From Trichodelitschia bisporula (Eukaryota), in contig ML996690.1 of NCBI GenBank assembly GCA_010356995.1, forward strand, positions 141,101-205,100: a stretch of DNA of 64,000 nucleotides, given 5' to 3'. The notes beneath the pieces were generated by a model, which did not search any database, was not told the DNA's origin, and worked only from the letters and a program-made list of their open reading frames with translations. The translations under genes were made by a program, and so were the position numbers. Shown here piece after piece: positions 7,076-37,727 of the stretch. The number at the start of each line of letters is the position of its first letter. Within the stretch, counting starts at the first letter, position 1.

Positions 7076-9284
7076 CTATTCGATCCTCTTCTTGCCTTCC
7101 TCCATGAATCCGAGACGCGCGTCGCTCTTACCCCGTTCGTGACGCGAGAGCAGCGGTCCTATCACCGGCGTTTGTAGCACGTTGTTGAGCGCCTCCTGGT
7201 ACCCTTCATGCGCATAGGGTGGCGTGTTGAGTTTCGGCCAGTTGACCTAACAAAGTCAGCCTTGCCCAGCAGTTATAGAATCAAAGGACGACTTACGTAG
7301 AATGTGCCGTGCGTGAAGATAAAGTAAAGACTGGCCATAGCAATGATAAACGACAAGATCATGAGCACCCGCAGCGGCCAAACCGCCGCCATGGCATCTC
7401 TCCGCGTAAAGGATCCCACAAACACCAGGAACACACTCGCCGCCAGAATATACGGCACACTCTGAATCAGCAGCGGCCGCTTGTCGACAAACACCCAACC
7501 GCCGAGGTGATTCCTCGCCGGCAGGTACGTGCCCAAGAAGACATCAAACGCGTCCTGGCGCGGCCCATCATAGAAATTATTCCTTAGATAGCGCGTCGTC
7601 GAGTTCGTCGCATCCATCAACATCCCCCTCTTCGTCCGCTCGCCCGTGCGCGTAAAGTCCGTCTTGAGCGCGCCCGTACCGGAGTACGACTTACTCACGA
7701 CATCGGCGTTGTCGGCCCACACGTTGCGGAACAGGTGCTCGAAGGCATGGTCCTCGTCCACGCGCTCGCCCTCGCGCAACACACCCAGATCGATCAGCAT
7801 CCGCGTTAGCATGAACCGGCCAAGCATGCTCTGTACGACATTCGTACGGTCCAGACAGTCCATGCAGTTCGTCCGCACGACGCACGTCTGCCGGCTGCGC
7901 ACCTCCATGCGGCCCATGGAATCGCCGGGCATGTCCACGCCGCGGAAGTAGCCGTGCTCGATGAGCGGGCCCTCGAGTTGCTGGAGCAGGAGCTGCGCGC
8001 GATGCCACCGGAGGCCTTTGGTTTCGTTGTGGAAATCGAAGTAGATGTAGTGCAACCGGCTGTATTCGCCGCGGTCCCGCTGCGGTTCGGCCACGTTGAA
8101 CTTCTCGGCCGTTTTCTCGTCGCTGTACGTTTTTTGTGCGGGTGCTGGCACCAGGTAGTCGTGCATCTGCTTGTATGCATCCTTCACGCGCTGCTCGCGG
8201 CCCTTCTGGTTAACCAGGTTGACGAGGAAGTTGTCGCCGTAGATCCGGATCTGCTCGTCAAAATGGCGTTTCGCCGCTTGCACCGCGCTCTCTACCCCGC
8301 GGATCTGCAGGCGCGGCGTGTACTTGAGGGTGTTGATCTCGGCCCAGTAGACCGGCACGCTGCCCCGAGTCTGCACATACGACAGGGCCTGCGCTTCTCG
8401 TCCGGCCAACGGCCCGGTCTTCGCTTCGGACATCCCACCGTCGCCGGCATAGCTCACAGGGCCCTTCGATGCGGCATCGTTGATGATGACAATCTGCTCC
8501 GTCTCGTTGTAGTTGGATACATTGCCCCTTTCGTCTATCCCGCGGGAAAAGTAGCGCGTGCCGCCGCGGTGTCTTGAGCGCCGAGTGATGAGGACAAAGG
8601 TCAGGGGGTTGCCCTTTACGGATGTGTTCCTGATCTCCATCATGCCGTACATGACTGGTAGGATAAAGGGGTCGATCCCGGGCTGCTCCCCGCGGTATCC
8701 GAGCCGGCCGCTGTTGCCCGTCCGGTAGTCAATCAGGTCCGACTGGACGAAGCGGTTCCAGAAAAAGCGGTCATCGGCGCGTTTCCAGAGCGGAAGCACC
8801 GGGTTGCTGTCCGACTGGCGCTGGAGGCTGTTTGTAATGTCGTAGGAGTAGGAAAAATACAGCGGCGCATTCTTAAGAAGATCTTTGACAATGTGCAGAT
8901 ATGTATCTTCATCCAAATCGTGCAGCGGGCGCTCGCGGAGGGGAAGGAACTCCGTTGCCGCGATCTTGTAGATCATATGTCCCCGAAGCCGGCCCACGGG
9001 TGTCGCCTTCGTGATCACAATGATGTACTTGTCTGCCGACGTCAGCCAGCTCCGCAGTTGCGGGGTTGTCAGGAGGTACCTAGGCGCAGGCTGATGATGC
9101 CTAGTATGCCCGCAATGCTAGATACTCTTTTCGAACCCAGAAGCTTGCCATCGTTCAGGCGCAGATCTCCAGAGGGCCGGTCGACGACCAGAGTCGGCGA
9201 GTTCGGAGACGACGGCGACGAGAAGGCATAATGCGATGCGGAGGCGTGCACATTGATGTCGCGAAAGGGGAGGGACGTGGCCAT
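7076..9284 (-). CDS. SAC1: Phosphoinositide phosphatase Sac1
   Basis: Sac domain motifs RGGTRYFSRGID, QTRGSVP, catalytic RTNCMDCLDRTN and GTGALKTDFTR. Two C-terminal TM segments. The last exon ends MEEGKKRIE* (KKxx-like ER retrieval). Introns near 9033-9078 and 7247-7298. Confidence 0.95.
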
Positions 9285-9821
9285 GATAGGCCGCTGAGCT
9301 GCTGGCCCGGTGTGGAGCTCACAGCAGAATTGGCAATGCTGTGTGACGGACTGGTGCTTTCTTTACGGCAAAAGGGAGGAAGAGGTAACGCGTCGTCCAA
9401 ATCTTTGGACAAGTACAGAATAGCAAACTGTAGGTGGCTCGTCTGGAATGGTGTTCTTCGGAGGCGCAAAAGGTTCGTGTTCCTTGGAAACATCAAGGTG
9501 GCGCGGCTTCGGGAGGGATGAGGAGCAGCAGGTGGCTAGTGAAATGACAGATGCAGGGTGTGGCTGATAGGCCGACGCTCACAGGTCAGTTCAGTTCTGG
9601 CAGCGTCACGCTGAACCTCTCTCTCTCTCTCGCTCTCCAGGTTCCAACCTTCAACATCACCGCCCCAACAAGTCCAGTCCACCACATCCTCAACAACCCC
9701 CACCAACCCCATCAACACCGCCAGCTGCCAGCCCATTCCGTTCCACATCCACCTCCTTTGGGCCTCCAACTGTCATCACTCTCCCTCATCCGCCCTTCCG
9801 CCTCCGCTTCATCCTCCAACA

Positions 9822-10668
9822 ATGGCAGCCCGCATGCAGCAAGGTGGCAGACCTGGCGGCTCGCGCTTCGCACAGTTCAAGCTTGTACTTCTCGGTATGT
9901 GATATTATTGCCAGCGATTTGACATACACTAACCACGGTGCAGGTGAATCGGCAGTCGGCAAGGTGAGAAATGGCGACGTTTGCTCATATCGCTAGCTAA
10001 CAGAGAGACAGAGCTCACTAGTATTGCGTTTCGTAAAAGTAAGACACCCCCTCCACACTCTATCCCGCATCGCTAACCTCCAGGACCAATTCGACGACTA
10101 CCGAGAATCAACAATCGGCGCCGCCTTCCTCACCCAGACCATCGCCCTCGACGAATCCACCACAGTCAAGTTCGAAATCTGGGACACCGCCGGGCAGGAA
10201 CGCTACAAGTCGCTTGCACCCATGTACTACCGCAACGCCAACTGCGCCGTCGTCGTCTACGACATCACACAGGCCGTACGTGTCCCTATCTCTTCTCCGC
10301 CCCACTAACCCCCCCAGTCCTCCCTCGACAAAGCCAAGGCATGGGTGAAAGAGCTCCAGCGCCAGGCAAACGAGAACATCATCATCGCCCTCGCAGGCAA
10401 CAAGCTCGACCTCGTAACGGAATCGCCCGACAAGCGCGCCATCACGACCGCCGACGCCGAGCAGTACGCAAAGGAGGCCGGGCTGCTCTTCTTCGAGACC
10501 TCAGCCAAGACAGCGGAAAACGTCCGCGAGCTCTTCACAGCCATTGCGAAGAAACTACCTCTCGACCAGGCGGGACCGCGGAGTATGCGCGCCCAGGCAG
10601 CGCGTCCGGGCGTCGACCTGCGGCCCGAGTCACATGCCACGCAGGGAGCGGCGGGGTGCAACTGCTAA
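9822..10668 (+). CDS. Rab5-family GTPase (Ypt52/RabB-like), 5 exons
   Basis: Exons 9822-9894, 9944-9963, 10012-10038, 10084-10275 and 10318-10668 splice to give [51 protein letters not shown] and a C-terminal CNC prenylation motif. Confidence 0.96.
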
Positions 10669-11034
10669 ACTAAGCGGGTACCGCTTTGTCCAGTCCTTTG
10701 ACGCAGGCCTTGTTCGGCCGCAGGTCCGCGACGCGTATGTCCTTCGACGCATGTCCATATGCCTCCGCGTAGTTTCTTGAGATCAGGCCGGTGTTTTGTA
10801 AGCCCGATTTATGTCTCATTAGGTGCTCTTGCGCGCGCGCTTGTTTTCGGCGGTGTTGGTTGGCGTGGGACTGCTACTTAAGACACAATTCCTTAATAGG
10901 CACATGAAGATTCCGGTCGTGCGAGTGTTTTTTCTGGATGTCAGAGTCTAGAGACTGAGTAGGGTGAGGAGATTGTCAATCAATTGATCCGTGAAACGCC
11001 GTGGATGCTTAAGTTACATGCCTGTTTACCGTGC

Positions 11035-11633
11035 CTACTTCCCCCCCCAAAGCCCCTTCACCGAATCCATTATCCCCCCCTTCTTCTCGTCCCCCTTCTC
11101 CTCCAGCTGTGCCGCCTTCCCCTCCACCGCCCTCTCAACCGCCTCCACCACCCCCGTCCCCCCCCTCTCCTCCCTCCTCGCCCGTCTCCTCGCCCGCTCC
11201 GCCTTATCCTCCTCATCCCTCGCCTCCAGCTCCTGCAGCCACTTCTCCCTCCTCTCCCTCGCCACCCTCTCCTTCTCCGCTCCCTCAACCTCCTTCCTCG
11301 CTTCCCTATCCCGACTCCAATACGCACTCCCAACCACCAACGCAAACAGCGTAAAACCCTGCGCGTAAATCCTCCGCCTGAACATGATATTAGCACGCGC
11401 GTGGTCGTTAACGCGCATCGCGCGCGAGGCGCCGATGAGCGCGGCCACGGTCGCGAGACAACCGAGTGGGACTAAAGGTTCTTGTTTCAGGCGTCGGAGG
11501 AGTTTTTGCGTGGGGGATTCGGAGTAGAAGTCGCTGCGGTTGTCAGTAGAGGTATCGGATGGGGAAGGGAAGAATGGGGGGAAGCCTACGTGTCGCCGTC
11601 GAAGGACGAGGGTAGGGGGTTGTCGCCTGACAT
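11035..11633 (-). CDS. RCF1: Respiratory supercomplex factor 1 (HIG1 domain)
   Basis: MSGDNPLPSSFDGD, then an intron, then KLLRRLKQEPLVPLG...MFRRRIYAQGFTL, followed by a charged coiled coil (KWLQELEARDEED). Confidence 0.92.
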
Positions 11634-12239
11634 CGCGAGTAGAGGCTGGTGGAGCGTTGGTGGTGTTGGTGGAGGCGAGAATGTGTAGGCCGGTATGAAG
11701 ACGGGATCGTGAGAAACGGTTTACGGGTCACAGTTGGGTGGAACAGGTGGAGTGTGGGGAGCGCGAGGTGTGCCGCGGGGATGACGATGTGATGCGCTTT
11801 GGGCGAAAAGCGTGGCGGGTGGCGGTTTTTTTGGCAAACATGGTCACGTGAAAGGCTGGTTGGGGAAGGTGGGGATGACATTTTAGGAGGGGAGAGATAG
11901 ACTTTTTGTCACTCGAGCTACACTTTTATGTCCTTGGGTTGGATTGACAGGTAAAGGGCTTGCTTACGGGCACATAACCAAAGACTGCGTTCTGGACGAG
12001 CTTCAAGGGACTCACTCCCAGCGCAGCGAACTTTGCCATGAAAGACTTCAATTCATATATCATTCATGATGGCACATCATAATATTGAAACTTAGCTACA
12101 ACTATGAAAAAGATCAGGGCCTTGCTGTAAACAACCTTACTGAAGAGCAGACCAGTCATGTAGTACCCTTCAAAGCAGCGAAGCCAGATAAAGAGCGTGT
12201 ATTCATCCGGATACACAACTTGCAAAGGATCCGGAGCGG

Positions 12240-12247
12240 CATATAAG
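12240..12247 (+). promoter_or_regulatory. Putative TATA box upstream of the double-hairpin locus
   Basis: CATATAAG about 130-150 bp upstream of the first repeat unit, with no protein gene downstream on the + strand. Confidence 0.3.
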
Positions 12248-12374
12248 TTTCGGTAGGTCTCCCATCAGTACACGGCCCGCAAGGCCACCGTGAATGCCAT
12301 TGTAGTCCTCGATGCATTCAAGGACGGCTTGTCGAATGAGTTTCGTCTCCAGCTCCAGCAAGGAACGAGTGTAC

Positions 12375-13050
12375 AACGCCAAACGGATATGCGAGGAGGG
12401 AAGAAGGAGCTTCCGGTGTCTGGATCAAGCAGAAGCGTCGGGAGCGCAGAGAGATCCTCTCTGTCTTATATTTCTCGGAGCAGAGCACATCTACGTCCAC
12501 GAGTTGCTGCGCAGGAAATGGTACATGAAGGACGAGGTGCGTAGCACAGCGCCGAGCTCCCTGCTATATGCCTCGTCTTTCAAGTACCACTTCCCGTAGA
12601 GAGACCAGTGGACGTAGTTGTGCTGTGACTGTTCATTGATATATAAGACAGAGGGGCAGTTGCCCCGCACCGTCCTGGCTTGTTGTTGTCGACGCAAAGA
12701 TATGAATGTGAGAAGGTAAAAGGAGCTCTCGGTGCGTTGACCACGTAGAAGCGTCGGCAGTGTGGGGATATCCTCCCTATCTCATATTTTTTAGAGCGGA
12801 GCACAACTCCGTCCACGAGATGTTACGTCTCAAGTGGTATTTCAAAGACAAGATATAGTACGGAGCCGGGCAGTACAGCCCCGTACTATATCTCTTATCT
12901 CCCAAATACCACTTGAAGCGGAAACATCGCGTGGACGTGGTTGTACTGTTCTGCTCCGAGAATAAGACAGAGAGGGTAACCTTAGCTGCCCCGCACCGTC
13001 TTGACTCCGCTTGCCGTTAACGTCCCATGTCAAAGAATGAGGGAGGAAGG
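12375..13050. repeat. Tandem duplication of a ~316-326 bp unit, each copy a long imperfect inverted repeat
   Basis: 12399-12539 aligns ungapped to 12715-12855 at 101/141 identity (hand count). TGCCCCGCACCGTC recurs at 12661 and 12987. Hairpin 1 arms are about 12456-12546 and 12562-12656; hairpin 2 arms are about 12772-12866 and 12878-12975. Confidence 0.9.
12456..12975 (+). ncRNA. Candidate hairpin-RNA / milRNA precursor (two ~200-nt stem-loops)
   Basis: Two stems of about 90 bp with 11-15 nt loops, compensatory substitutions between the copies, several G-U pairs on the + strand, and no credible ORF. Transcription is inferred, not shown. Confidence 0.45.
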
Positions 13051-13792
13051 ATGCTTGAAGACGGGAATGGAGAAATTGAGTAATGTCTTTGAGTCGCAGT
13101 GGTGATGATGAGTTGTCGCGTTGAGAGGTTAGGTTGTGGGATGAAGTCAAGAGACAAATTCCAATCAGAAGAGAATAACCGCAACTCCCCGACATGAAGC
13201 CATCCGAACTCGGCCTTGGCCTGAGAGCTATCGAGTCCGGCTTCCATCAACATCTAGAACTAGGATCTGGTTCGAGAACGCTTCGATGAGGTTTCCTGTT
13301 ACATGTTCTACCACAGTACATAGATGCAAGACATCAAACGAAACAAACAAGCTTCGATTCCCTGCTACGCCTGCCTCCCAACCCAGGTTATCGCGCCATC
13401 AAGCGCAGCGGAACGCCTATCAAGATTGCAGCAGATGGTGGCGTCGGTGCTGTGTGACGGTATCTTCAGCCGCAGCCCGATTCTGCAGGTCCTGAACGTC
13501 ATGTCATCTGTCAAGGACAGCAGCCGCGCTTATATCGACATTTCTGAAAGAACTAAGACACGCGTCTCAGACCACAATCCCCCAAACCTCCAGCTCTCAG
13601 TCATCACCACTACGCCATTGCGTCAAAAGGCGGCTCACATCACACATGCACCACACGAAATGCGATTAAGTACTACCCACTGACCCTCGCACCCTCCTCA
13701 AACAGCCCTGCACGACCGTAAAAACAGTAATCCGTAAAACAGAATCCCCATCTAGAAGGCAGAACAGTGATCCGTCAAAGCAGAATCCCGAA

Positions 13793-14510
13793 CTAGATCA
13801 TGGCAACCACAGCACCGAGACCCAGCAACGCCGCCAGAGCCTCCCCACCGACAGTCCGGCCCGCTCCGCTCGACGGCACCGTCGCCACGGTGGCACGCGT
13901 GGTGCTCGGAGTAGCAGTGCGCGACGCGCTTGAGCTCTCGCTCGCAGACGACGAGCTCGCGCTGGCACTTGCACTGGAACTAGCGCTGGCGCTCGCGCTC
14001 TTGGACGACTCAGACGCGGAAGCGCTGCTGCTCGCCGACGCACTGTCCGTAGACGCCGACGACGCAGTCTTAGTACCAGTCACAGCGGAACTCAAGGGGC
14101 CCGACGTGCCGGAGACCGTGAACTGAGGCGTGTAGTTCACATTGCCCTTGTTCGAATCGTCGATGATTTCGATGGCGTAGGTGGTGCCGGAGGGCAGATC
14201 GGAGGGGGGCGTCCAGCTGTAGGTGCCGCTGTTTTGGACGGAGGCTAGGGGTTGCGGTTAGTTTGTTTATGTTTATGTTTATGTGTTTGGATTTTTGTTT
14301 TCGCCGCTTACCCGCGATGCTGGTGCCGGGGTTCAGGTTGCCCGCGTCGCCCCAGCGCAGCTGCAGCGACACGGTGCCCGACGTCGTCGGCTGCCAGGTG
14401 ATGGTGGTGGGCTGGCCGGCGACGAGGGCGCCTGCGACGGGGACGAGCGGGTTATCGAGCGCGGCGGCGAGGGCCGCGAAGGCAGAGATGACGATGGCGG
14501 TGAACTTCAT
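13793..14510 (-). CDS. GPI-anchored Ser/Thr-rich cell-wall protein with Kre9/Knh1-like N-terminal domain
   Basis: Signal peptide MKFTAIVISAFAALAAA. Domain motifs AGQPTTITW, NSGTYSWTPP and NYTPQFTV. Ser/Ala-rich stalk and hydrophobic GPI-type C-terminus. Intron 14245-14311. Confidence 0.88.
14262..14288. repeat. (GTTTAT)n microsatellite in intron
   Basis: TTTGTTTATGTTTATGTTTATGTGTTT inside the intron of the GPI-protein gene. Confidence 0.7.
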
Positions 14511-15443
14511 GTTGTATGTAGAGTATCTAAAGAGTGACGTAGAGTTAGACTCTGAATGCTAAAGAGCGACGACGGTGAGATGCGAGATGAGGGCGATTGC
14601 GCGAGGAGGGAACACACTGCGTGCTGTCAAGAATGTTTTTGAGTCCGTACCTTTGACCCCTTGGGCTAGTGGCGATCGCTCCGCGCCGGCCTATTGCGCT
14701 AGGCTCTGGTGAGGGGTCTGAAGCGCGCGAAAGTGTGTTTGCGGAGTCGTGAATGGTGGGGCGTAACGTGGCAGCGCTGGGCAAATCAACGGCACTTAAA
14801 ATCACGATTGAAGAACAATGCGTGGAGTAGAAGTGTCGTTAAAGCTGGACAGACGTTTGCTGCGTAAAGTTCACGATGATGGGATGACGACGGACGGGAG
14901 AGCAGCAACACCCCCCATTTAAATCCCTACCCCGTGCCTCCTTCGTTCCTTCCCTCCACCTTCCAGACCACAAACCTGCTTTGTCCCCCTCAGCGGTGCG
15001 TCCTTCCACTCGGCTCATTCTTCCATATTAACCTCGCGATCCGTGCCCCGGCCACGGGCGCGGCAATCACGAATCGCGCCTGGCGCAGCGGTCGCCCTGA
15101 AAGGCTAATTTCCGTTAGGGGGGCACGAACATCGCGCCATAATCCCGAACCTGTGGCAGCGCTGACGTCGGGTATCACTGGGGAATGGCCCGCGCTTAAG
15201 AATACTATGGCGCGTCTGCCATTCAATTGCAGTAGATCGCTCGGAAGTAGACGCTGCAGGCGCATTACTTGAAGAAAGCCCTTCCCACCCCGCACTTGTT
15301 GACGGGTGGAGCTGTGGAACCGTTGAGCAAGGGGGCGTGAGGAATGACATGTGGCGATATCGACATTCCTGACTACATCATATCCGTCCCAGAGTGACAA
15401 AGACACAACACCAGCAATCCATCATCCCCCGCAATATCCCCGC

Positions 15444-18067
15444 TCAAATCTCAAACGCACCCTGCAGCCTAACATCCAGCACCGACGCCCCCACATAAAC
15501 ATTATAAAGCCCCTGCTGCAGCACCCAATTCTGCAACTTGGGACTCCAGACGCTCAAATCGCGGCGCGTGAGCTCAAAATGAAAGCTACCCGTCTGGCCC
15601 GGCTGCAGCTCGCGCTTGACAAACCCGCGCAGTTGCCGCTTCGGCGCGTTCGGGATTCCGATGTATAGTTGCACGACTTCGGCTGCTGTCACCGCGCCTA
15701 CGTTGCGCACGCGGCAGTCGACGGTTGCGACTCTGTCCCATAGCGCCGCTGGGCCGCCCTCGGCGGTTGGCGACCGTGGTGGCACGAAGGAGTCGTTGAT
15801 GGTGTTGACGACGAAGGAGAGCATGGCTGTTTGGAGGCCTGAGTATTCGAAGCGCGAGTATGTGAGCCCGTAGCCGAATTCGAAGCGCGGCGTTTTGTTG
15901 TGCGTGAGGAAGTGGCGGTAGTCGATGTTGACGCCCTCGGAGAATGTGCCTGCTGGTTAGATGTGATCTGTATGTGGAAGTGTCCTTACTTTGTGGGTAC
16001 AGTGTCATGTTCGTGTTTGGTGGTGGAGTGTCCGGTTGCAGCAGCGGGGAGTAGTCGAAGTCCATTTTGGCTACAGTGTACGGGAGCCGGCCGGATGGAG
16101 ACACCTTGCCGTAGAGTATATCGATGAGTGCACGCCCACTGTCCTGGCCGGGCAAATGTGCATAAATGACCGCCGTGACATTGGGATGACCGATCCAGGC
16201 GTCAACGAGGCGGATGCCAGCGTTGTGGATGACAACGACGGTGTTGTTACACTTCTCCGCGACATTCATGACGAGACGGTCGGACCACCCGTCCGCCAGG
16301 GAAGGCCGGTCGGCACCCTCGAGTGCAAACTCATTGATCATCACGACGCACGCATCCGACGCAGCCTCGACCGCGGGATCCAGCGACTCAAAGTCCCACA
16401 GCAGGGTCGTGCCGTCCTCGTACGCCTTCTGCTGGAAGGCATCATACGGAGCCGAGATGTAAGGCGGGGAGTTAGCCCCGCTGCCGCCGCCACCGATAAG
16501 TGTACCCTTCTTAGCCGCGCCGGGCGGATTCGTGAGGCCGAAGAGCAGGAACAGGCCATCGATAGAGCCTATGCCGCTGGACTGGAGCCCCAGATTCCAT
16601 ATCATGTCATTGGGACCTGAGGGGTTGTTCTTGACCGGGGCGGTAGCGTCATAGCCGAACAATGAAAGCAGTGTCGGAGTCCGCAGCGGGAGGGCCCTTT
16701 TGACGTTCTTAACCAGGACGTGGCCTTCGTACGCGGCTTGCAGAATCGCCTGCTTTGACGCCTGATCACGCGCGTTTATGAAGGGGCGAGGCCGGTTGAA
16801 GGCCTGGTTCATGCCCACGCCTTTTGTGGGATTGTTGGGTGCGTCCATGCCTATGCGGAACCACGAGGCGACGATACTGCTCCATTAGCGCGGTCCAAGA
16901 TTTCTAAGATTACCTACCGTGTCGCCATATCATCCAGCCGCCATTGCGCGAAGCTCCCATTATTAACGGCTTGGACGAGGGCGCCGCCCGTCGGAGTGGT
17001 GATATTAGGAAGCATCACATTCATCACCATGTCCAGGCCTGCGCTGGCACTGGCAAGTCGCGAGTGCTCTGCGCCCCAGTCCGACACGACGAATCCCTGA
17101 AACCCGAGCTCAAGCTTGAGCAGCCCATTTAGCATCTTACTATTCTGGCAGCCGTATGAGTTGTTCACGCGGTTGTACGAGCACATGACGCTCCCGACGC
17201 CCGCGCGGACGGCATCCTGGAATGGCCAGAGATACAACTCATGCATCGTTTTGTCGTCGATGTTGGACGACACCGACTGCTTCCCGCTCATCACAAAGTC
17301 GAGCTGACTGGGGTTACGGTCCGTCTCTTGCTCGTTGCCGATGAAGTGCTTGACGCAGGCAATTACGGACCGCTGGAGCCCTCGGATGGTCTCCGCCGCC
17401 ATCGCGCCAGAAAGATACGCTTAAGGGTCAGCAACCGACATTTGGAGAGTCATAATGCTCACGGTCCGCGCCGAAGCCCTCCCAATTCCGTCCTCCGCGT
17501 GCAACCCGGCCCAGAGGCCCAACAACCGGCCCAAGAGCCACATTAACTGCGCCGTCAGCAGATCTTCGCACACCTCAGCCGAACACCCACCTCCTTTGCG
17601 CCGAAACTCAGCGCCCATGTACCCACCAATCTCTTTTGCCAGCGGTGCATTCCACGACGCGCCTATATGGATTCCCGCCGGAAACGCGCTCACGCCGTCC
17701 ACACCGCGTACGCCGGCCGGCCCGTCGTGCAAACACAGTCCGGGGAATCCAACAGACTCAACACCACCGCTGTTACCGGCGCAGCTATTGGGATCGGCTA
17801 CCTGGTTCGTCACATGCTCTTTCTCCTCATTGGTCATGCGTGAGACCATTTCGCGGGCTCTGTTGTATGCGTCGGTCCAATTGCCAATCCCGGCGCCAGA
17901 TGCTGGATTGTTAGCCAAACTCACGCGATCACAAGAGACGTACGGCCGGGATAGACGGGTGGTGAGCGGCCATAGGACCAGAATCGCTCCAGGTCGGCCT
18001 TCGACGCATTTTGCGCCGTGGCTATGCCGGCCAAGGACAGGAGCAGGATATGGACGAGAGCCAGCAT
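15444..18067 (-). CDS. Secreted GH3 beta-glucosidase, multi-exon
   Basis: Signal peptide [18 protein letters not shown], then [45 protein letters not shown], catalytic [31 protein letters not shown] and an FnIII-like C-terminus (EVVQLY...QLRGF). Confidence 0.95.
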
Positions 18068-32546: not shown

Positions 32547-33042
32547 GTTCGGTGCCAAGACCCTAACCTGGGGCCAGCTGCTGGGGTGGGGAAACGTTTA
32601 GCCGCGTCTTGCGGGGGATCATGTGACTATATACAGCGCACGGACGAACGCTCCATACGGTATAAGTTGTTGCTGAGTGTTGAAGAGCAATGGCTGAGCG
32701 AAGAAGTCATGAGCGCCCCACCACCGGCTTTTGCTTAGCTATACGGACAGTTCACCAAGAGGGGCCGCTCATGACTTTTTCGCTCAGCCCTTGGGTCTAA
32801 GTTGCACAAAAGGGCAAATAAATCGTTCCAGTTATCAGCACGATAACCGCTGCCTAAGGCCTATACTATCGACTACTATCCTACACAAACAGACAGCAAA
32901 CAGCCGTCCAAGCCCACCGGAAAGTCGCCAAAGGTATACAAGCTCCAAGAGCATCCGCAAGTGAAACTCCAAAGCATGTCCCGCGCCCATCCGCTGTTCC
33001 TAACTCCGTGTCCAGTTATAAAACGCCGCTGAAAAAACACAA

Positions 33043-37631: not shown

Positions 37632-37727
37632 TGCGTCGGCCGGGAATCGAACCCGGGGCCCGTCGAATCATAACTGAATTGCTTCAGATCATGGCAACGA
37701 CGGATTTTACCACTAAACCACCAACGC
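37632..37727 (-). tRNA. tRNA-Gly(GCC) with 25-nt intron
   Basis: Minus strand reads GCGTTGG TGGTTTAGTGGTAAAATC CGTCG TT GCC A [intron] T CGACG GGCC CCGGGTTCGATTCCCGG CCGACGC A. Acceptor, anticodon and T stems pair, A/B boxes are present, and a T5 Pol III terminator follows. Confidence 0.96.

Follow-up and report, generated by a model that had tools for sequence, protein, structure and literature searches.

Two long hairpins stand head to tail in the spacer between the RCF1 gene and a Kre9-like cell-wall protein gene of the dothideomycete Trichodelitschia bisporula, and base pairs that differ between them have in several places changed on both arms at once. This hairpin-specific covariation is real and goes beyond independent decay, because arms that decay independently in simulation almost never yield the observed excess of columns in which the two arms of one hairpin agree with each other against the two arms of the other. 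The reading that we favor, with confidence a little above even, is that the locus is a tandemly duplicated and weakly transcribed quasi-palindrome whose inner arms were homogenized at the DNA level by template switching. Under our models, such copying could explain the covariation with no selection on RNA needed.

The locus and its two hairpins

The window is the whole stretch of DNA that we analyzed, 64,000 nt of the forward strand of contig ML996690.1 (positions 141,101 to 205,100) from the 25.8-Mb T. bisporula assembly. Both hairpins are intergenic, and the local gene order is SAC1-domain gene (minus), Rab5-like gene (plus), RCF1 (minus), the two-hairpin spacer, and the Kre9/KNH-domain gene (minus). 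In a sequence search, the HIG1-domain protein of the left neighbor was 100% identical to a T. bisporula entry, and the hits after that one were in the Venturiales and other Dothideomycetes. The order RCF1, Rab5, SAC1 (window 7273-11633) is common to several other fungal contigs; the region upstream of RCF1 varies, and its content is not alike across the four fungal loci whose genes were listed. The features of the spacer and its surroundings are as follows, with a strand given for the two genes.

11035-11633, minus strand: RCF1/HIG1-domain gene, the left neighbor, with an intron at 11534-11589 and directed away from the hairpins
12070-13288: low-depth unspliced transcript contig over both hairpins (12121-13288 in run X1, 12070-13186 in run X2)
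12396-12690: repeat unit 1 (aligned part), with homology fading upstream to about 12375
12456-12656: hairpin 1, with arm A at 12456-12551 and arm B at 12557-12656
12484-12503: stem block that is kept best, with 14 of its 20 columns the same in all four arms (excess p 0.08, not significant)
12504-12545: loop-side half of arm A, holding all eight double changes (copy-2 equivalent 12820-12859)
12712-13015: repeat unit 2, from the direct repeat and alignment
12772-12975: hairpin 2, with arm C at 12772-12866 and arm D at 12877-12975
End of unit 2 to about 13055: short remnant of the start of a third unit, recognized by eye
13793-14510, minus strand: Kre9/KNH-domain Ser/Thr-rich cell-wall protein gene, the right neighbor, with an intron at 14245-14311 and its 3' tail facing the hairpin region

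The units, each of about 320 nt, form a head-to-tail direct repeat with a spacing of 316-326 and 72% identity over 141 ungapped nt; a search of the flanks for a third copy returned nothing above shuffles. Flanks that lie outside the hairpins are common to both units (43/60 identical positions on the unpaired 5' side and 87% over 23 nt on the 3' side), which indicates that the whole unit was duplicated. The arms are kept no better between copies than that 5' flank, with 21/28, 18/20, and 21/35 identical positions in three arm stretches.

Watson-Crick pairs occupy 70 of the 95 arm positions in hairpin 1, the core of which (12484-12551) keeps one ungapped pairing register, and 66 of 93 in hairpin 2. 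Compared with shuffles, folding gives z scores of -9.7 (unit 1) and -11.0 (unit 2) on the plus strand and of -8.1 and -11.9 on the minus strand, with 0 of 100 shuffles reaching the observed value in each case. Hairpin 1 folds better on the plus strand (-117 kcal/mol, versus -104 on the minus strand), and hairpin 2 folds better on the minus strand (-119 versus -100 kcal/mol). The hairpin scores of 90 and 80 stand against a best score of 40 among 53 other loci of the same genome; this background comprised 55 loci (171 kb), two of which were dropped when their apparently perfect palindromes of 235 and 67 nt proved to be runs of N. Across 64 other fungal RCF1 loci (358 kb), no hairpin of comparable strength was found, the best score being 37. 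A separate observation concerns the outer 5' arm of hairpin 1 (12456-12487), which fits the outer 3' arm of hairpin 2 (12947-12975) better than does hairpin 2's own 5' arm; in a dimer fold of the minus strand the two stretches pair and a four-way junction results. In this cross-hairpin match, the ancestral state may have been retained by chance.

A pair of such structures could also have been left by two decayed fold-back transposons of the MITE kind, or by a pseudogenized coding fragment together with its antisense copy, and the likeness of the arms within each copy would then reflect a different family member or paralogue behind each. We consider this origin decidedly improbable. The size and shape of the hairpins do fit a MITE, but the duplicated unit takes in the flanks outside the hairpin, which fits tandem duplication rather than two insertions, and no third copy was recovered. 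DNA searches of the T. bisporula genome found no copy beyond the two local ones, and four motif searches of it for family members or targets gave 53, 7, 12, and 19 matches against 48, 4, 8, and 14 in the control, close to control levels and with no extension of any match beyond the motif; all of these copy searches set lower bounds, which leave room for very diverged copies. By eye, no target-site duplication is evident at the hairpin ends, which are decayed. A coding fragment would agree with the absence of indels from 141 nt of the 5' side of both units (12396-12538 and 12712-12854), when several occur in the loop and 3' side, and with one plus-strand frame that is free of stops in both copies and scores high by BLOSUM (p 0.04 in that frame). 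Over six frames, however, the result is not significant (p 0.09 for BLOSUM and 0.53 for identity), and no homologue was found in the same genome, Pfam, 1.84 billion representatives, longer proteins, or the Atlas (best 0.80). We take the stop-free frame as a weak, unexplained hint of something coding-like.

In metagenome contigs, a strict two-arm pattern had 0 matches; a relaxed version had four, all on viral contigs, and these were rejected because each lies within a long phage-like reading frame and has no homology outside the pattern. Among the 64 fungal RCF1 loci, Rab5 is retained as a neighbor in 12, and 6 of those 12 extend at least 1.5 kb upstream; none of the 64 shows DNA homology to the hairpin region (best E 0.23) or matches the four-arm model. 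Since the best of these relatives are only 50-66% identical in RCF1, absence beside their RCF1 genes would at most suggest lineage restriction. The stretch upstream of unit 1 has a 20-residue tblastn match (E 4e-4) in two of the RCF1 loci, L042 and L045.

Rfam at gathering score reports just a tRNA in the 64-kb window, and at E up to 10 what it adds are matches to generic hairpins that score far under the cut-off (MIR6457, 33.9 versus 140 bits), with no ribozyme. Fungal SRP RNA (RF01502) was rejected as a candidate, the genome's single match being on another contig. Two further features of the window may be recorded. The anticodon loop of the tRNA gene at 37632-37727 (minus strand) is interrupted by about 27 extra nt, presumably an intron, and at 32688-32793 there is a single hairpin of pre-miRNA-like size (z -8.0 on the plus strand and -6.7 on the minus strand) whose stem is nearly perfect over about 28 bp and which does not match the four-arm model.

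Paired changes and proposed arm copying

The first-pass annotation of this DNA had drawn attention to three compensatory differences between the copies, namely, G12515-C12593 becoming C12831-G12915, C12524-G12584 becoming T12840-A12906, and TAGCA/TGCTA becoming TAGTA/TACTA. All three are present exactly as described, and all are base pairs in the minimum-free-energy structures of both copies. The accompanying statement that both arms often change together holds insofar as double changes exist and is otherwise overstated: among 74 pairs of copy 1 mapped to copy 2, 44 are unchanged, 7 have changed on both sides and still pair, 8 have changed on one side and still pair, and 15 are broken, and uncompensated changes outnumber covariation about four to one. 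That each arm of the inner stem matches its own partner better than the partner in the other copy is true at 12514-12550 for three of the four arms. There, A and B agree at 27/37 positions versus 19/37 for A and D, and C and D agree at 29/35 versus 26/35 for B and C; arm B is the exception, since it resembles arm C in hairpin 2 no less than its partner A.

We aligned the four arms in one orientation over 95 positions (12456-12550), with A and B from hairpin 1 and C and D from hairpin 2. The alignment holds 41 invariant columns, 35 singletons, eight columns that split AB from CD, and none that split AC from BD or AD from BC; a second, independently trimmed alignment holds 39 invariant columns and 38 singletons, with a double-change split of 7:1:1. 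Independent decay simulated on a star tree gave at least eight AB/CD columns in at most 0.3% of runs, and simulated decay without copying met the observed split in at most 0.08% of runs, which bears out the earlier contention that the pattern is not plain neutral decay. The double changes, at 12504, 12507, 12514, 12515, 12524, 12534, 12537, and 12545, are concentrated toward the loop (7 of 33 variable columns in the loop-side half versus 0 of 23 in the rest; Fisher p 0.034). Three of the eight are transversions, and two of these three (12514 and 12515) are adjacent.

Another way to mimic compensation would be RIP, or methylation-driven C-to-T change, striking equivalent cytosines in both arms. 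At all five transition double changes, copy 2 carries T or A where copy 1 has C or G. The indices of copy 2 are RIP-like (TpA/ApT 1.38, substrate 0.77, composite 0.61), and among 202 windows of 631 nt the repeat pair comes out at the top. Of the four C:G-to-T:A singletons in copy 2, three lie in CpA/TpG context, and the genome has DNA-methylase domains at three loci, none of them placed as RID. RIP cannot, however, produce the three transversion double changes, copy 1 carries no RIP index (composite -0.14), and the singletons run the opposite way overall: 14 of 35 are T:A to C:G, 12 are transversions, and only 9 are C:G to T:A, so that C:G-to-T:A change in CpA/TpG context is not dominant. Five double hits against four single ones would, moreover, imply a per-site rate unlike that at the surviving CpA sites. 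We therefore give very little credence to RIP as the sole cause; that it contributed in copy 2, its changes then being spread to both arms by copying, is possible and is the likelier of its two roles.

Arm-to-arm conversion, one of the two causes that the first-pass annotation had offered, does fit these data. We infer the following order of events and copying mechanism. A fold-back would have arisen by inverted duplication, each arm about 100 bases long, in the spacer between RCF1 and the Kre9-like gene and, while still nearly perfect, would have been duplicated head to tail with its flanks as a unit of about 320 bases. The four arms would then have decayed through point mutation. Some time after that duplication, each hairpin may have had its loop-side half re-copied in DNA, one arm onto the other, by replication template switching or by hairpin-templated repair in the quasi-palindrome. 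Such re-copying would turn single mutations into apparent compensatory pairs, and decay would have gone on afterward. Any RNA made from the region would be expected to form long duplexes open to cutting by Dicer.

Several observations speak for this scenario. That just 0 to 1 columns split the 5' arms from the 3' arms indicates a hairpin that was nearly perfect when it was duplicated, given that 4-7 such columns appear in simulations with 3-6% divergence before duplication. When each hairpin undergoes one copying event, a neutral model yields 41-42 invariant columns, 33 singletons, and 5.5-6.7 double-change columns (observed, 39-41, 35-38, and 7-8) and reaches the split seen here in 13-23% of runs if the inner half is copied and in 33% if the whole arm is, although its parameters were set by hand to match the totals, which makes the fit a consistency check and not a test. 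Transversion double changes for which there is no G-U route, two of them adjacent, likewise count for template-switch copying. Template switching is treated as a source of adjacent multibase compensatory changes in RNA stems in part of a preprint (bioRxiv 10.1101/2021.04.15.439925), and portions of two yeast studies describe homogenization of arms in inverted repeats that are imperfect (PMC8604942 and PMC3820800), in the latter case under high transcription.

Against arm copying stand the small column counts that come with having two copies and the shortness of the longest surviving perfect tract, about 11 bp adjoining the loop of hairpin 2; template-switch tracts are also short in those parts of the quasi-palindrome papers that bear on their length. 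Arms C and D differ by 2 nt at a place inside the homogenized half that was not copied; this difference must postdate the copying. A reading in which copying is everything also has to face the fact that both hairpins are complete, transcribed, and unusually strong compared with background loci. If the copying reading is true, the locus would offer a natural example of "compensatory" changes brought about in a long fungal hairpin by DNA-level arm copying and a caution for calling structured RNAs from covariation between paralogues; it would otherwise be ordinary.

Strand bias, transcription, and small RNAs

The other cause offered earlier, selection on RNA structure, does not find support in the data. 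A strand bias in G-U pairs had been suggested from four G-U versus two A-C in the core of hairpin 1 on the plus strand; our recount at 12514-12550 gave 4:3 for G-U on the plus versus the minus strand and did not confirm it. The ratio is 6:6 over 12484-12550 and 8:6 over the whole arm in hairpin 1, 5:10 in hairpin 2, and 13:16 for both hairpins pooled, with no departure from 1:1 (p 0.79, 0.30, and 0.71 for hairpin 1, hairpin 2, and the pool). The residual mismatches number 13 G-U, 16 A-C, and 23 others, close to the 16, 16, and 24 of the neutral simulation, and selection models that give at least five double changes over the whole arm predict 15-22 G-U, 3-7 A-C, and 8-14 others. The observed bias has p of at most 0.015 under models of selection on the plus strand; under models of selection on the minus strand, p is 0.001-0.12 for the whole arm and 0.05-0.28 if the inner half alone is selected. 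In these simulations, then, selection on plus-strand RNA fits poorly, and weak selection on minus-strand RNA would be compatible with the bias. Selection on RNA structure is left unsupported by the lack of a G-U strand bias, the preference of the two copies for opposite strands, a transversion load like that of neutral decay, and the confinement of the double changes to the loop side. Copying and selection can nevertheless act together and are not mutually exclusive.

Evidence for transcription comes from runs X1 and X2, which are one sample, taken as RNA by guess, and which consist of assembled contigs without strand or ends; they show spliced joints at neighboring genes. None of the four runs is recorded as RNA, and runs X3 and X4 are possibly the source DNA and not independent. 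The contig over the hairpins has a depth of 63 in X1 and 25 in X2, about 3% of that of the Kre9-like gene (2017 and 781). No contig covers 11821-12037, nor, in X1, 13289-13360, which is a weak hint at most, and in X2 the Kre9-like contig extends to 13162. Minus-strand read-through from the Kre9-like gene and a convergent plus-strand transcript both fit these contigs. Upstream of the Kre9-like gene, both RNA-like runs carry a spliced transcript at 14406-15500 (GT..AG joint 14994-15118) that reaches into the end of an oppositely oriented beta-glucosidase-like gene; it is possibly an antisense or noncoding RNA.

The chief alternative to copying alone is that the locus is a two-hairpin small-RNA precursor, an hpRNA or a long milRNA cluster, in which pairing has been kept by selection. 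The strand would most plausibly be minus, with the hairpins carried on Kre9-like transcripts that extend or read through at the 3' end, Dicer cutting the stems, and Argonaute loading the products. We hold this to be possible but doubtful. One unspliced contig spans both hairpins in each of the two spliced runs, the locus is intergenic and matches no Rfam structural RNA, with SRP RNA elsewhere, and the genome has two Dicer-dimer loci and three Piwi-domain loci. (One of the Piwi-domain matches, G000:C18:570652-571683, contains three stops, which would be introns or the mark of a broken Argonaute copy.) The pooled G-U count, at 16:13, leans toward the minus strand, on which hairpin 2 also folds better, and models of weak minus-strand selection are not at odds with the data. 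The block best kept in all four arms is 20 nt long and, if there is a small-RNA duplex, would be the leading candidate for it.

The same alternative is opposed by the missing strand bias and the contrary strand preferences of the hairpins (plus for hairpin 1, minus for hairpin 2), and by selection models that place G-U pairs well above A-C and transversion mismatches at 8-14, versus 23 observed. No relative was found in metagenomes or beside RCF1 in the 64 loci, no target in the genome was found above chance, and expression is supported by one sample in runs guessed to be RNA, at about 3% of the neighbor's depth. Six short motifs searched against the supplementary tables of PMC9757828 that were covered gave only unrelated rows, with no match among published fungal miRNAs and milRNAs; in the part of that paper drawn on here, well-supported fungal loci are usually short hairpins. 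Our literature search returned no published report of this locus, nor of a tandem hairpin-RNA locus in this fungal order.

An intermediate account, which we judge unlikely though worth stating, would make the locus a lineage-specific polycistronic hpRNA locus of the Drosophila kind, formed by the fold-back of a short and possibly once-coding fragment, duplicated in tandem, and expressed as part of a cell-wall gene's 3' tail. Its double strand would be kept by DNA-level arm copying, not by stepwise compensation, and would be diced to siRNAs. If small RNAs are made, the locus would be a young tandem hairpin-RNA locus that shows the birth and maintenance of fungal small-RNA genes.

Comparison with known systems

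Degenerate fungal MITEs and fold-back elements are about 200 nt long, self-complementary, and noncoding. The hairpins described here resemble them in all three respects and differ from them in forming two adjacent copies with common flanks and in belonging to no dispersed family that we found. In Drosophila hairpin-RNA clusters, the transcribed strand forms many G-U pairs, and targets have been identified. Like such clusters (for instance, hp-CG4068), the present locus has tandem paralogous, long, imperfect hairpins on one transcript; unlike them, it is without a G-U bias and without a found target.

With the fungal miRNA and milRNA hairpin loci treated in the portion of PMC9757828 used here, the locus shares an intergenic position, transcription, a strong hairpin, the absence of an Rfam structural RNA, and the presence of Dicer and Argonaute. 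It differs in its 200-nt tandem stems, the supported loci in that portion being mostly short, and in the tiers as given there it would fall short on conservation and small-RNA support.

The remaining comparison is with quasi-palindrome template-switch systems, as far as they are described in the parts of PMC8604942, PMC3820800, and bioRxiv 10.1101/2021.04.15.439925 that concern us. Here the arms, at about 100 nt and about 72% identity, are longer and older than those short repeats, and the event is read from two paralogues instead of from a phylogeny or an assay. In common with these systems, the locus has an imperfect inverted repeat with changes on both arms, together with an adjacent multibase double change for which no G-U intermediate is needed.
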